NCBI GenBank assembly: GCA_048884785.1
Contig: JBHLQM010000052.1
Location: 11,961-26,068 of the forward strand
Source: Candidatus Thorarchaeota archaeon
GTDB taxonomy: Archaea; Asgardarchaeota; Thorarchaeia; Thorarchaeales; Thorarchaeaceae
DNA length: 14,108 bases
Reading direction: 5' to 3'
Numbering within the stretch: the first letter of the stretch is position 1; each line of letters starts with the position of its first letter. Of the stretch, positions 3,577 to 14,108 are shown piece after piece. The notes beneath the pieces are model-generated. The model was not told where the DNA came from. It did no database searches and worked only from the letters and a program-made list of their open reading frames with translations. A program made the position numbers and the translations under genes.

Positions 3577-6500
3577 ATGCATAGGTATAGGTTGATGGCT
3601 GTAACTGCCTTGGTGGTAATTTTACTTGTTGGAATGGATGTGCAGCGGGCTGTTGATCATCCTGAGATGAGTCTTGGTGATTCTGATGAACCGTTAGCAT
3701 TGGTTGATACCCAAGACCTAGTCCAAAGGGCGTTAGCTGAAGATCCACCTAGAACGCCTGTAAACCTACGAGAATTGGTAATTGAACTACAGAATGCCAC
3801 ACCTATAGCGAATCGAACTGACTATGATAATGACTTGCTGTATGACCCAGTCGAGAAAGTTATAGGAACCGACCCAACTCGAAACGATACAGATTCGGAT
3901 CAACTCTCTGATTACTTTGAAGTTATGAATGGCACGGACCCACTTTTGCCTGATTCCAACTACGATGGTATCTATGATTTTGAAGAGGTCAATGTGACTT
4001 TGGATTTAGATAATGACGGCGTACCAAATGCATGGGACTTTGATAATGATGGCGATGGTGTCAATGACGACCCGGACCTGTCCCCATTTGCATGCACTGA
4101 TGCACTAGATACATTTGATATCCAGCTTCAGACTGATGGAAAACCTACGCTCATCAACCTCCAACTCAAACCAGAAGATGTTGAGCATCTCAAAATTGCA
4201 TCTCAGACATGGAATTGGCCACATGATGAAGATGGAATCATGCAAGACATCGATGATTCAATAGATGATATCACAATCTCTCCTTTCCTCAGGATAACAA
4301 CAGACCAAATTCCAAGTCAATCAGCGCTGGATGAAATGCTAGTTATTTCCACTGAAGATGGATTGCTAGTAAGATTGACTCCAGTCCTAGAATATGAAAC
4401 AATTGTCGCATTCAGTGGCAGCCTTCTCTATGATGGCTCTGTTCCTTCAAATATTGATCTAACTGCTGAGTTGATCTGGAAAGTCGATGGAGCTACAGAC
4501 ATAGTTGCGAAGACTTTGAAGGCTGAAGACGACTATCTATCAGTCGGTCAAGACATGATGGCTGTATGCAATGCTACAGAAGGCGATGCACTCGCACTTG
4601 AATGGATACATATCAGGGAAAATTCAGAGAGGATACGTTTTGCGCTCAAAATATTTGACGGTCCATATCTTACTGTAGCACCTGACAACACAACCCTGGT
4701 CTTCAATGCAACAGAGTTAGGTCCTAGAGAAGAGTTTCTTTACTGGAAACAAAATGATGTGATAACTGCAGTTACTGGTGATCGATTCTTTGTAAATCCT
4801 GAAGGATTGATGATTCTGCAATATACTCCTGCTACCACATTTGAAGTAGTCGATAGAATCTACTCATCAAATACTCACCTCGTCACCTATACTGATCCGT
4901 TCATAATCACAGGGCTTACGATTGAGGAATTCTATGGTACAGAAGTTGGTGTCTTTTACAATAGTACCGACAAGAATCAGACAATAGCAGCAAGCTGGTT
5001 GATGACCTATCGATTTGCAAATAATGCTACTACTACCCTCGAGGATATACCGGGCATTCTTGCTTCTGCCAGTGTCGAAGTTTCCAATATTACTGAATCA
5101 GTTCGTGACAAATATGAGGCTCTTGTCAAACTTGGAAATGAGCTATTTCCATCAGCGATGATTGGAGTACCAGCTAATATGCACTATCCCATAATTGCAG
5201 CAATCGAAGACAGGTCCAAGGTGTTGGACCTATCAAATCTTGCTGATGGCTCGTATATCGTTAGTTCCCCATGTCAATTCAATCTACTCGGAACAGAAGT
5301 AATAACCAGTAAATCGATGAAGATGAACTGGTATAATACCTCAACGAAAATAGCAGTGGCACCAGTCGAGCTCTTTGTCGATGTCGCTTTGATGGACCTG
5401 AGTGATATAGCAGCATTGAATCTTATTGGAATGCTCTTTCGATGGGACACAGGAATCCATACAATAACCTGTATAGGTTCAGATTCTGAACTCTTTCAGT
5501 CACCAGATTCTGAGGAATTGGCAATTACGTCAAATGTACTAGTTTTCGGTCTGGAAGGATTAGTCTTTGCTGCGGAGTTAATATTCGCCTTTAAGGCTTG
5601 GAAGGAGCTCAATATCTATGTCAAGAATATGGGTGGTAATGTCGCAGAAGTAGCAAGACGTCTCCAAGCTATTAAAGACCGATATGAACTTGCAAGCGAA
5701 ATCATGGATTTAGTTAAGGACCTTGGAAAGAACAGCAAATTCTGTACATGGCTGAAGTATTCAAAATGGATCAATGCCAATAAGAACTTCAAGTTTCTGC
5801 GGACCTTCAAGGGATTCTCAAAAACTATGTTTGTTCTTGGAATTCTTGTGGATATTGGTATAGCAGTCTGGTCCGGAATTGCAATAGCTAAACAGATTGG
5901 AGGAGATGTAGGTAGAGAATTTGGTACAATATATGCAGTAACAGCAGCCATCATTGGAGGGCTAATTATTGCAATCATGACAATAATAGGGATGATACCT
6001 GTAATTGGATGGTTATTGGCTATCGTTGCATGTATTGTTGATGCTGTTGGTGGATATTCATCTAAACTGATACAGTGGCTTACGGACTGGATATTTGGTA
6101 CACCTATGCAGATGGGTTTCACACTACCAAATGCGTATCTTGACGATGTGCCCGATATAACGATTATCGACAATGAAGGTAATGGATTCACAGCAGGAGA
6201 CGCCCTAAAGATAAATGGGTCTCTGTGGGGCGTTATTGAAGCAGATGTGTTCCAAGCTTATGTCGTGAGGTATGACTATCGGTTCACAAAGACGCAAATT
6301 GCTCAGGCTCTAATCGCTTTATCATCTCTAGACCCCTATATAGAATATCTAGTACCTACGGGAACCAACGACATTGTCAATGAGATGCCATCAAACATCA
6401 CTGCGGAGGTCGAAAGCAGTATTAGTGAGCACCCCTTCAAATACGTGTATAGGTTTAAGCAAGAATTCGGTGTATTAGTGTATCCCTCTATTGCAATGAA

Positions 6501-13200: not shown

Positions 13201-14108
13201 ATGCGAAACTCATGGAAACATTATGTATATCCATGGTTTGGGTTAGGAGGAGATTGTTATCATGATGATACTTATGCAAACTTGACTGCGTGTTATGATG
13301 CAGTGACCTTCTACTATGATGTATTCCCAAATAACCTCAAGGCCTTTCTCTCGTGGAGTGTCATCACCGCAAATGATCCAGACGGTGACCAACTTTTGCA
13401 GGATGAGGAAACTGCTAATGGTGTATCACCTTGGAACTATGATTCTGATGGAGATAATTTGAATGATAGGTATGAACTAGACAAAGGACTCGATGCAACC
13501 AAGCCTGATAGTGATATGGATGGTGTTTCAGATTGGTATGAACATGTCTATGGAACTAATGGAACAAATAGCGATTCTGATGAAGATGGTGTAAGTGATT
13601 TTGACGAGATATCAGGATGGATCATCAACTTTTGCTATCTGGACAATGACTCGCTACGATTCCAGATTCCAGTGACATCTGATCCTAGGAGCAATGATTC
13701 TGATGGCGACGGAATTGACGATTTTGAGGAATTCAAAAGTAACACCAATCCAAGATCGAATGATACCAATGGAGACGGTATACCTGACTTATCCTTTGAT
13801 TGGTATGTTTCAGAAGCAACCTATGAAACAGCCATCGATATTACGTTAGATGGAGAGTACAACCAACTAACAGACATCTGTGTTGACAAGTACGGTTTTG
13901 TCTACACAGGAGGTTATATTGCTGGAATTACTTACAATGCGGCTGTAAGGAAATTCGATTCTTCATTGAATCCCGCAATACTTCCACCAAGTTCTGTTTT
14001 CCCAAATATGACAGCGTATCCTTTAACATCAACACAAATCGTAGAAATTGATAATACCAATAATTGGCTCTACGTACAGACCGAAAGCGGTATCGATAGA
14101 TTCAATCT
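10219..14108 (+). CDS. Giant cell-surface glycoprotein 2, paralog of 3577..10065, 3'-truncated by the window edge (over 1296 aa)
   Basis: Hand translation from ATG 10219 (MHRHRLMLLAILAAILIVGLDIENA...) finds no stop up to the window end (...WLYVQTESGIDRFN). It is colinear with copy 1 from the signal peptide into the propeller. Not in the supplied ORF track. Confidence 0.93.
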   Translation, partial: MHRHRLMLLAILAAILIVGLDIENAIYHPESIAEPPEEILPLVDSRDLLQRALSEDPPRTPVDLRSLVIELQNATPIVNRTDYDNDLLYDPVERVIGTDPTRNDTDSDTISDYFEAMNGTDPLLPDSNFDGIYDFDEVNVTLDLDEDGIPNAWDFDNDGDGVNDDPDLSPFACSNVMSSFDMHIQTDGKPTYINIQLTPADVSHLKLFYQTWNWPLDYEGLMQDHDDSQEDITINPYLRIWTYQIPTQDALDEMNVITSENQLLVRLFPVLEYGSIVAFNGRLLYNGSVPSNIDLRAELLWRVDGLSDITAKVLKGDDYYLEDDYYVSHDQDMIAVCNVSDSANALPLELIEIRDTADTMRFALKIFNGPYLSVASDGRTLVFNASSIGTREIFELYKYQGWIMGFNKEFIHLNPDGTLVLQTYGRLVVEFEDQVFTSSTHLVSYTEPFRITGITIEEYYDTDVGIFYNTTSMNYTIAASWFMTYRFVNNATTTLSEMPGLLANQNVNVSNSILSVRDKYTAVMELCNNLVPSVLDDLPSSQHVPILMAIEDRSKVLDLSQTLSGTYRLQESCLFNLTEFKVLTMKSLKMNWYNSTTKVALAPIELPVKVAQLDLSEMASINLLAVLLRWDNGIQQITKIGSDLEQYDGPDSEELDIVQYVLMGGLELINLGNELVFGLKAWKELNIYINNIGSVAEVSSRLQLIKQRFAAGSDWVDLVKDIGKSDQFCTWLKYTHWINANRNTKALKVFKNIGKVLFVLGIIVDLGLSIAAGFIIADQIGGQTGREYGTIYGITAAVIGLIIVALLAVIETIPVVGWLIALAVCIADVIGGFSSDFIMFLTKLFFGTPNAIGSTSPNAYLAEAPDISIIDFQQNGLTLGDWLRIDGTIIRQIEATVKEGFYLRFGRTVSKENIGKALILNSILNPFVTYHRPDGGFEWFGNLLFVDSQETFRQTSTYPYKILSTIERVFASIVIPTMAMNNYPITMKLSYPYIMRNSWKHYVYPWFGLGGDCYHDDTYANLTACYDAVTFYYDVFPNNLKAFLSWSVITANDPDGDQLLQDEETANGVSPWNYDSDGDNLNDRYELDKGLDATKPDSDMDGVSDWYEHVYGTNGTNSDSDEDGVSDFDEISGWIINFCYLDNDSLRFQIPVTSDPRSNDSDGDGIDDFEEFKSNTNPRSNDTNGDGIPDLSFDWYVSEATYETAIDITLDGEYNQLTDICVDKYGFVYTGGYIAGITYNAAVRKFDSSLNPAILPPSSVFPNMTAYPLTSTQIVEIDNTNNWLYVQTESGIDRFN

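Follow-up and report, generated by a model that had tools for sequence, protein, structure and literature searches.

Do the giant surface proteins of an Asgard archaeon carry a module that can enter the membrane of another cell, or does the long hydrophobic block in their middle belong to the membrane of the cell that produces them? This question is raised by a stretch of 14,108 nucleotides from a Candidatus Thorarchaeota archaeon (GenBank assembly GCA_048884785.1, contig JBHLQM010000052.1, positions 11,961 to 26,068; G000:C52:11961-26068 in our numbering), hereafter called the window. It comes from a metagenome-assembled genome (MAG) that is 91% complete, and its right edge is the contig end. 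Two colinear paralogs in the window, copy 1 and copy 2, share 59% identity over 1291 residues (pairwise alignment), which confirms the tandem giant proteins recognised in a preliminary description of this DNA. That description had proposed that they are cell-tethered machines for membrane insertion, in the sense of pore formation, translocation or fusion. Our analyses tentatively, and only by a narrow margin, favour the view that the central block is an exported, insertion-competent module of the colicin and pyocin kind over the view that it is a domain of the producer's own membrane. The proteins themselves form a large family of giant cell-surface proteins that was previously undescribed.

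Copy 1 is encoded in an open reading frame (ORF) at 3514-10065 on the forward strand, in which the actual start is the ATG at 3577, giving 2162 residues. The truncation of copy 2 is due to the assembly only. At the start of another contig of the same genome (C79, 1-1209) lies a 403-residue C-terminal piece that is 72% identical to residues 1760-2148 of copy 1; from its sequence, the simplest reading is that it is probably the tail of copy 2. A third full copy follows on that contig (1729-8415, within G000:C79:1-8415; 2229 residues, 43% identical). Thus, contigs C52 and C79 probably carry the two parts of one array of three tandem genes that was broken in the assembly, and the search for further copies that the preliminary description had called for was fruitful.

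The central helical block and toxin insertion domains

The block is about 210 residues long, and the order of its elements is the same family-wide: an amphipathic helix (helix 0), a variable stretch rich in lysine and arginine with two or three short amphipathic helices, three hydrophobic helices (A, B and C) and a final amphipathic helix, with a conserved IPxVGW turn between B and C. About 75 consecutive residues across the three hydrophobic helices are nearly uncharged. Their Kyte-Doolittle (KD) values in copy 1 are 2.25, 2.66 and 2.45, in agreement with the long internal hydrophobic block noted before, and the family medians for A, B and C are 2.16, 2.14 and 2.27, with an Eisenberg mean hydrophobicity (H) of 0.64-0.70. 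Helix 0 is not transmembrane (TM)-like, with family medians of 1.26 for KD and 0.41 for the hydrophobic moment at a mean H of 0.27. Lysine and arginine make up 17.3% of the loop that follows it, compared with 6% in the flanks. On a position-independent Hessa-type scale (values of Hessa et al. 2005), the family sums were +1.8 for A, +0.7 for B and +1.6 for C, colicin hairpins treated by the same method gave -2.5 to +2.0 and the C-terminal anchor -3.5; helix 0 had a family median of +7, with +2.2 in copy 1. Helix A has a conserved aspartate in its middle (V-D-x-G), and helix C has one close to its end; ion binding, a pH or calcium switch and the avoidance of a translocon stop are candidate roles for these residues.

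A profile of 88 blocks was compared with all PDB sequences, and its single match at E <= 10 was the pore domain of pyocin S5 (6thk_A, residues 361-482; E 1.2e-5, 28.7 bits, bias 0.2). In this register, helix A falls on the helices before the S5 hairpin, the conserved GW falls on the colicin W-P motif, and B-C falls on the hairpin itself. When the same profile was aligned by hhalign with 13 colicin pore domains taken from plasmids, a score of 30.8 (P 4e-4) was obtained in a register matching the S5 alignment, while the 31 decoys scored 13.3 (reversed template) and at most 18.6 (30 block-shuffled templates). With the filters off, colicin Ia-type and Ib-type domains and a Serratia colicin-like domain were colinear with the block over nearly its whole length, at 7.7-12.5 bits only.

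A second line of similarity emerged when 43 family blocks were scanned one by one against the 18,950 NCBIfam models. The model of Bfe1, a type VI secretion system (T6SS) effector, was matched by 17 of the 43 blocks at E <= 0.1 (NF053698; best E 6e-7, positions 185-309 of 313), and that of the BTH_I2691/VasX/Tke5 effectors (NF041559) by two; no other NCBIfam model recurred beyond three members. The scores lie far under the curated cut-offs, with 12-16 bits for the window copies against 315 for Bfe1 and 11.2 bits for copy 2 against 150 for NF041559, and no other match to the Bfe1 model was found in the genome. For the C-terminal part of Bfe1 a transmembrane location is predicted, and attempts to obtain the full-length protein in soluble form did not succeed (PMC13035841). 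The BTH_I2691/VasX/Tke5 proteins are pore formers in which buried predicted TM helices are followed by a beta-rich membrane-binding domain (PMC12909789). As a lead only, the ESM Atlas features of the block were closest to unnamed bacterial clusters (best 0.90), with a Colicin-carrying cluster at rank 13 (0.87). Small stand-alone relatives of the block (92-382 residues) were not found in a word-limited search, which is weak evidence.

Membrane of the producer or of a neighbour

The distribution of N-glycosylation sequons bears directly on where the block resides. Copy 1 contains 38 N-x-S/T sequons against an expectation of about 18, and the stretch between residues 588 and 879 has none. Across 88 sequences, measured against composition-matched shuffles, the basic loop contains 5 sequons where 25.9 +/- 4.4 are expected, a five-fold depletion, and helices A-C contain 2 where 9.3 are expected in the family. 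The pre-block ectodomain is enriched (156 observed, 88.7 expected; aligned region, 42 members). Controls from the same genome gave observed-to-expected ratios of 0.89 for cytoplasmic proxies, 1.01 for basic windows, 0.82 for the TM segments of 222 multi-pass proteins and 0.96 for their loops. Therefore, the purge of sequons fits a module that meets the external oligosaccharyltransferase and has to stay free of glycans, whereas a buried or cytoplasmic segment would be under no such selection.

The mode of anchoring points in the same direction. A C-terminal TM segment is present in 43 of the 73 long family members, including most archaeal ones, while two bacterial members (that of a Firmicutes MAG and one further protein) have three SLH domains at the C-terminus in its place, and the Desulfatibacillum member has no C-terminal TM segment. 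C-terminal tethering, as proposed in the preliminary description, is thus provided by a separate anchor, and since its type varies by organism, the tethering is done elsewhere and the block is not needed for it. In one archaeal member (P0012), a helix-hairpin-helix domain (HHH_5, residues 2267-2321) follows the C-terminal TM segment, that is, on the cytoplasmic side.

In the mechanism that we tentatively prefer, the protein would be exported by its N-terminal signal and, in the Thorarchaeota archaeon, would stay attached to the cell by its C-terminal TM helix with the basic cytoplasmic tail. The calcium-binding TSP3 repeats would form stalks, and the lectin-like beta-trefoil and the propeller-like domain may recognise ligands that another surface displays. 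An alpha/beta domain, the helical block and a DxDxNG beta domain make up the conserved core, and in the block the amphipathic basic helices would accompany the hydrophobic B-C hairpin and the third hydrophobic helix, A. Once exported, and not integrated into the membrane of the producer, the block would insert from outside into a bilayer, most plausibly that of a bound neighbour, and might act there as a pore or as a membrane tether. If helix 0, A, B and C were all to cross, so that the basic loop came to lie on the far side, their topology would presumably mirror the published open state of colicin Ia. By analogy, the protein may work like a tethered insertion device of the colicin or RTX type.

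Several observations weigh against this reading, and most of them speak for an alternative that we consider quite possible: that the block is a constitutive domain of the producer's membrane. The protein would then be polytopic, with two giant ectodomains and, besides the C-terminal TM segment, either a four-helix bundle (helix 0, A, B and C, with the basic loop in the cytoplasm) or at least the B-C hairpin in the membrane; it would serve as an adhesin or a contact sensor, and its colicin likeness would reflect convergence or a very old ancestry without toxin function. Helices A-C are TM-like on both the KD scale (above 2.1 in each case) and the Eisenberg scale, and their conserved aspartates are of a kind found in functional TM domains. 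The loop, with 17% lysine plus arginine in an otherwise acidic protein (16% aspartate plus glutamate in copy 1), would also suit a cytoplasmic position under the positive-inside rule, and a four-helix topology (out/h0/in/A/out/B/in/C/out) can be drawn that obeys parity and this rule and agrees with the sequons on both flanks. The Sec translocon can integrate sufficiently hydrophobic helices into the producer membrane during export, and the Hessa-type sums of helix B in copies 1 and 2 are negative (-2.0 and -2.5), so that Sec might integrate helix B of these copies into the producer's membrane. The argument that Sec would integrate helices A-C with certainty is weakened by the family sums, which resemble those of colicin hairpins. 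Modelled alone, the block has a mean predicted local distance difference test (pLDDT) of 73.6 in AlphaFold2 and eight helices, long and antiparallel, including the B-C hairpin; in this prediction, the block resembles a small bundle of integral membrane helices more than the soluble ten-helix globule of the colicins with its buried hydrophobic hairpin. No significant fold match was found for it by Foldseek or by VIA against the PDB, the best, non-significant VIA rows being the small three-helix integral-membrane bundles DgkA and Vtc1 (Z 5-6), and colicin B reached a Z of 2.5. The toxin similarity is also less clear in other comparisons: the hhalign probability was 35%, the Pfam Colicin model (PF01024) matched none of the 43 blocks at E <= 0.1, and a colicin hidden Markov model (HMM) failed to separate single blocks from reversed sequences, with one native sequence above the best decoy. 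From these alignments, we place genuine homology of the block to colicin-type domains somewhat short of an even chance. Twelve loci contained no immunity-like or other conserved neighbour, the sole recurrence being tandem duplication in Thorarchaeota, and the block is not polymorphic. The sequon argument, moreover, presumes that the family members come for the most part from N-glycosylating archaea and treats related sequences as independent. Thus, the membrane-inserting module of the preliminary description gains from the weak, decoy-controlled similarity to toxin domains and from the sequon purge, and loses from the missing immunity gene, the bundle-like model and the failure of the reciprocal profile.

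A constitutive membrane domain, however, is not easily reconciled with helix 0, which is not TM-like in most members; with three TM helices, the two ectodomains would come to face different sides of the membrane, and this parity does not suit a plain bundle. In the loop and in A-C, sequons are depleted far more strongly than in the genuine TM segments and loops encoded by the same genome, most long members have a separate surface anchor, with SLH domains, a mark of wall-bound exoproteins, in two bacterial ones, and the specific similarity is to toxin insertion domains. Placing the hydrophobic helices outside any bilayer, as the buried core of the cassette or as a site for a hydrophobic ligand or lipid in a giant calcium-dependent adhesin, seems improbable. 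The block always lies between the same two conserved domains, its pLDDT falls to 31-68 when the flanks are present, as happens in segments that depend on a partner surface, and the remaining recognisable parts are all binding or stalk modules; yet the long uncharged run far exceeds typical buried cores, the helices are TM-like on every scale used, and the specific matches are membrane-inserting domains. Least credible, to the point of being very improbable, is that these proteins form the S-layer of the organism or serve as another of its core envelope proteins. Many archaeal envelope glycoproteins are, like them, large, acidic, rich in sequons and anchored at the C-terminus, but the distribution of the present proteins is patchy (13 of 301 sampled genomes of the phylum, all from one family, in which 12 of 76 genomes have them) and the copy number varies from one to three. 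A full-length match to an S-layer or adhesin family, which the preliminary description had named as evidence to the contrary, was looked for in Pfam, NCBIfam and the PDB sequences, and none was found.

A wider extension of the insertion-module reading is, in our judgement, rather unlikely as a whole. Anaerobic archaea, the Asgard archaea among them, and some anaerobic bacteria would share a surface-tethered alpha-helical insertion device, in which a lectin and propeller head grips a neighbour and a colicin-like module plugs its membrane, for contact-dependent killing, prey lysis, or the capture or bridging of syntrophic partners; self-protection would come from the tethering geometry or the lipid type rather than from an immunity protein. 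If the block does enter foreign membranes, archaea, Asgard archaea included, would possess a contact-dependent system of membrane attack or membrane tethering. This would bear on the physical dealings between Asgard archaea and bacteria, which are central to models of the origin of eukaryotes, and the range of colicin-like insertion domains, so far released bacteriocins and injected effectors, would widen to giant proteins that are exported by Sec and anchored to the cell. Should the block be a fixed anchor instead, the family would still define a class of giant surface glycoproteins with two ectodomains, widespread and as yet without a name, whose core cassette has no known structure.

A family of giant proteins in archaea and bacteria

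Residues 180-1050 of copy 1 were used to scan 1.84 billion representatives, and 244 clusters (50% identity) were retrieved at E <= 1e-3, 89 of them at E < 1e-30. Most family clusters are 2000-2500 residues long, with the same layout as copy 1. The block HMM detected the block in 116 of 157 retrieved proteins (the two window copies being counted under several identifiers), always between the same two conserved domains. The close homologs are from Thorarchaeota; other archaeal holders include Hermod-, Hel- and Promethearchaeota, Thermoplasmatota, Methanolobus vulcani PL 12/M and another Methanosarcinales MAG. Bacterial holders include Desulfatibacillum aliphaticivorans (with cadherin and Big domains), a Firmicutes MAG and a Dehalococcoidales MAG. 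The member of M. vulcani PL 12/M (L022:9329-15694; 2121 residues) carries ricin-B lectin domains beside an FRG1-like trefoil, and as this methanogen is in culture, the question is within reach of experiment.

Outside the block, the domains indicated in the preliminary description were all recovered. The signal peptide has the expected basic n-region and hydrophobic core (MHRYRLMAVTALVVILLVGM), and the C-terminal TM anchor of the complete copy was likewise confirmed. DxDxDG-type calcium-binding repeats number 16 in copy 1, in four clusters, and 7 in the 1296 residues of copy 2 (motif scan); Pfam TSP3_bac (PF18884) scored 42.7 bits against a cut-off of 25 on the whole of copy 1, which names the repeats only and not the protein. 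Ligand-binding-type domains are represented by the beta-trefoil and by a propeller-like region, which is colinear with NHL repeats in a homolog. The trefoil aligns with fascin with a VIA Z of 17.4 (root-mean-square deviation 2.3, 116 residues aligned) and with about 50 trefoil lectins and carbohydrate-binding modules at Z 13-15; on the model, it is a lectin-like domain of three-fold fold, about 120 residues long, with predicted sugar binding. The DxDxNG motif of the beta domain after the block looks like a calcium-binding loop.

Fold searches were made with an AlphaFold2 model of residues 180-1050 (871 residues). They were dominated by the trefoil, which leaves the scaffold and the pre-block and post-block domains without a fold assignment; the fold search of domains that had been suggested beforehand thus assigned the trefoil and gave no significant match for the block. 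Profiles of the pre-block and post-block domains found nothing better than E 0.05-0.8 among the PDB sequences, the whole of copy 1 had no match there, and the conserved C-terminal domain (residues 1795-2103) had no Pfam or NCBIfam family match. Two candidates were set aside. An aerolysin-type relationship, suggested by Foldseek rows for Lysenin, Cry78Aa and the Vibrio cholerae cytolysin, was rejected because VIA aligns only their trefoil domains. For the class II fusogen fusexin (archaeal Fusexin1, 7p4l), the Foldseek probability was 0.07-0.08 with a TM-score of 0.05 on the modelled residues. The fusion and translocation readings of the preliminary description found no evidence in their favour.

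For the core, no Pfam or NCBIfam family, solved structure or published description was found, and only the repeats and the trefoil were matched, in line with the earlier impression that no characterised family has this whole architecture. The architecture is a new combination, in which a central, conserved, insertion-like module lies in a Sec-exported, anchored, calcium-stalked binding protein shared by archaea and bacteria. By their defining tests, the family stands outside the colicin, Bfe1, VasX, CglD/MtsD, RTX, contact-dependent inhibition (CDI) and S-layer families.

The likenesses to these systems are nevertheless instructive. The pore domains of colicins Ia, E1, B and K and of pyocin S5 (PF01024; PDB 6THK, 1RH1) are, like the block, all-helical domains of about 200 residues in which basic amphipathic helices precede a hydrophobic hairpin with a tight proline/glycine turn, and profile similarity is colinear and hairpin hydrophobicity comparable. 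Unlike them, the block lacks a PF01024 match and a structural match, has a fully hydrophobic third helix A and has no immunity gene; it lies in the middle of a Sec-exported, anchored protein of 2,100 residues and not, like the domain of a released bacteriocin, at the C-terminal end. The C-terminal, TM-predicted region of Bfe1 is the part recurrently matched by the block, and Tke5 resembles the cassette in the order of its parts, a helical region with predicted TM helices and, after it, a beta-rich domain that binds membranes. In contrast to the Bfe1 and VasX effectors, whose cut-offs are far from being reached, the proteins here lack a T6SS, a MIX or Hcp-loading part and an immunity gene, and they have archaeal hosts and Sec delivery.

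RTX cytolysins such as HlyA and CyaA are exported proteins in which a hydrophobic, helical pore-forming region of about 200 residues is followed by calcium-binding repeats that fold outside the cell. They may be regarded as functional analogues, since the proteins described here are also long and exported, with a hydrophobic helical region ahead of calcium-binding repeats. However, the repeats are of the TSP3-type DxDxDG kind and not GGxGxD nonapeptides, HemolysinCabind is absent from the Pfam scan, a Sec signal replaces the C-terminal signal of type I secretion, and the protein stays tethered. Myxococcus CglD and MtsD (NF033765, NF047639) share TSP3 stalks and a multi-domain surface build, with partial matches of 79.8 and 58.4 bits on the repeats; these lie under cut-offs of 400 and 800 bits, no VWA domain is found here, and CglD and MtsD have no internal hydrophobic block. 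CdiA and Rhs proteins (PMC3482391) are likewise very large, surface-displayed proteins, comparable to a protein that could deliver a toxic module on contact, but their module is variable, lies at the C-terminus and has an immunity gene after it, whereas the module here is central, conserved and without a conserved neighbour.

Features and surroundings of the locus

The features of the two copies are collected in Table 1. About 100 nucleotides upstream of the genes and the first codons are common to copies 1 and 2 (79% mean column identity in an alignment of 184 columns), with a TTAAAAAG box about 70 nucleotides ahead of the ATG in both. As both copies retain this conserved upstream region, the two paralogs seem to be served by separate promoters and leaders.

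Table 1. Positions of the features of copies 1 and 2 in the window (residue numbers are those of the respective protein)
Feature	Position	Strand	Basis
Putative conserved 5' leader or promoter region, copy 1 (TTAAAAAG box, CAATGTTAACTCA, ATTCGCG-TGGTGT-GGG ahead of ATG)	3490..3576	+	Alignment with copy 2 upstream region
Putative conserved 5' leader or promoter region, copy 2	10132..10218	+	Alignment with copy 1 upstream region
Copy 1, complete gene, 2162 residues	3577..10065	+	ORF and translation; start backed by conservation of the 5' region in copy 2; same sequence as database protein P0003
Copy 2, first 1296 residues, cut by contig end	10219..14106	+	ORF, translation, alignment with copy 1
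N-terminal signal peptide or signal anchor, residues 1-27	3577..3657	+	Basic n-region and 15-residue hydrophobic core, KD peak 1.98
First TSP3-type DxDxDG calcium-binding repeat cluster, residues 126-164	3952..4068	+	Motif scan
Beta-rich scaffold and alpha/beta domain, residues 180-640, family-conserved, with inserted beta-trefoil	4114..5496	+	AlphaFold2 pLDDT about 90
Beta-trefoil (fascin/FRG1/ricin-B-like), residues 309-429	4501..4863	+	VIA; Foldseek agrees; FRG1, Fascin and RicinB Pfam matches in homologs
Central helical block, copy 1, residues 640-851	5494..6129	+	Hydropathy; family profile; conservation
Helix 0, residues 645-684, amphipathic	5509..5628	+	AlphaFold2 helix; hydrophobic moment
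Lys/Arg-rich amphipathic loop, residues 685-746	5629..5814	+	Composition
Hydrophobic helices A (residues 747-774), B (776-805) and C (811-825)	5815..6051	+	Alignments, KD
Post-block beta domain, residues 844-1050, with nearly invariant IxDxDxNGxDxGD motif	6106..6726	+	AlphaFold2 pLDDT 75-90; conservation
Second TSP3 cluster, residues 1070-1185	6784..7131	+	Motif scan; source of partial NCBIfam CglD and MtsD matches
Propeller-like region, residues ~1195-1535	7159..8181	+	Pfam SBBP weak, E 0.023; colinear with NHL/SBBP region of Thermoplasmata homolog P0009
Third and fourth TSP3 clusters, residues 1510-1786, probable stalk	8104..8934	+	Motif scan; best Pfam TSP3_bac stretch residues 1756-1774
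Conserved C-terminal domain, residues 1795-2103	8959..9885	+	Colinear with P0009: 32% identity over 1052-residue alignment including the domain
C-terminal TM anchor, residues 2108-2140, and basic tail RWRKRR	9898..10062	+	KD 2.93, Hessa-type sum -3.5
Central helical block, copy 2, residues 646-853	12154..12777	+	Alignment with copy 1; block HMM 168 bits

On the reverse strand, divergent from copy 1, a 203-residue ORF (2577-3188) has a signal-type N-terminus (MKRIICLLCLLLLLPIPSNA), a C-terminal hydrophobic segment and a basic tail; it had no Pfam or NCBIfam match and is not kept beside the homologs elsewhere. It is preceded in the window by an oligoendopeptidase of the M3 family (713-2494, reverse strand; Peptidase_M3 E 5.6e-35, and TIGR02290 at 472 bits, under its cut-off of 561.7). 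Just upstream of the window (G000:C52:10571-11854) lie two tandem paralogous ORFs of about 200 residues with a small-GTPase P-loop (KTVLIGDSGVGKTS), and masked bases occur from C52:11858 onward, at the left edge of the window.

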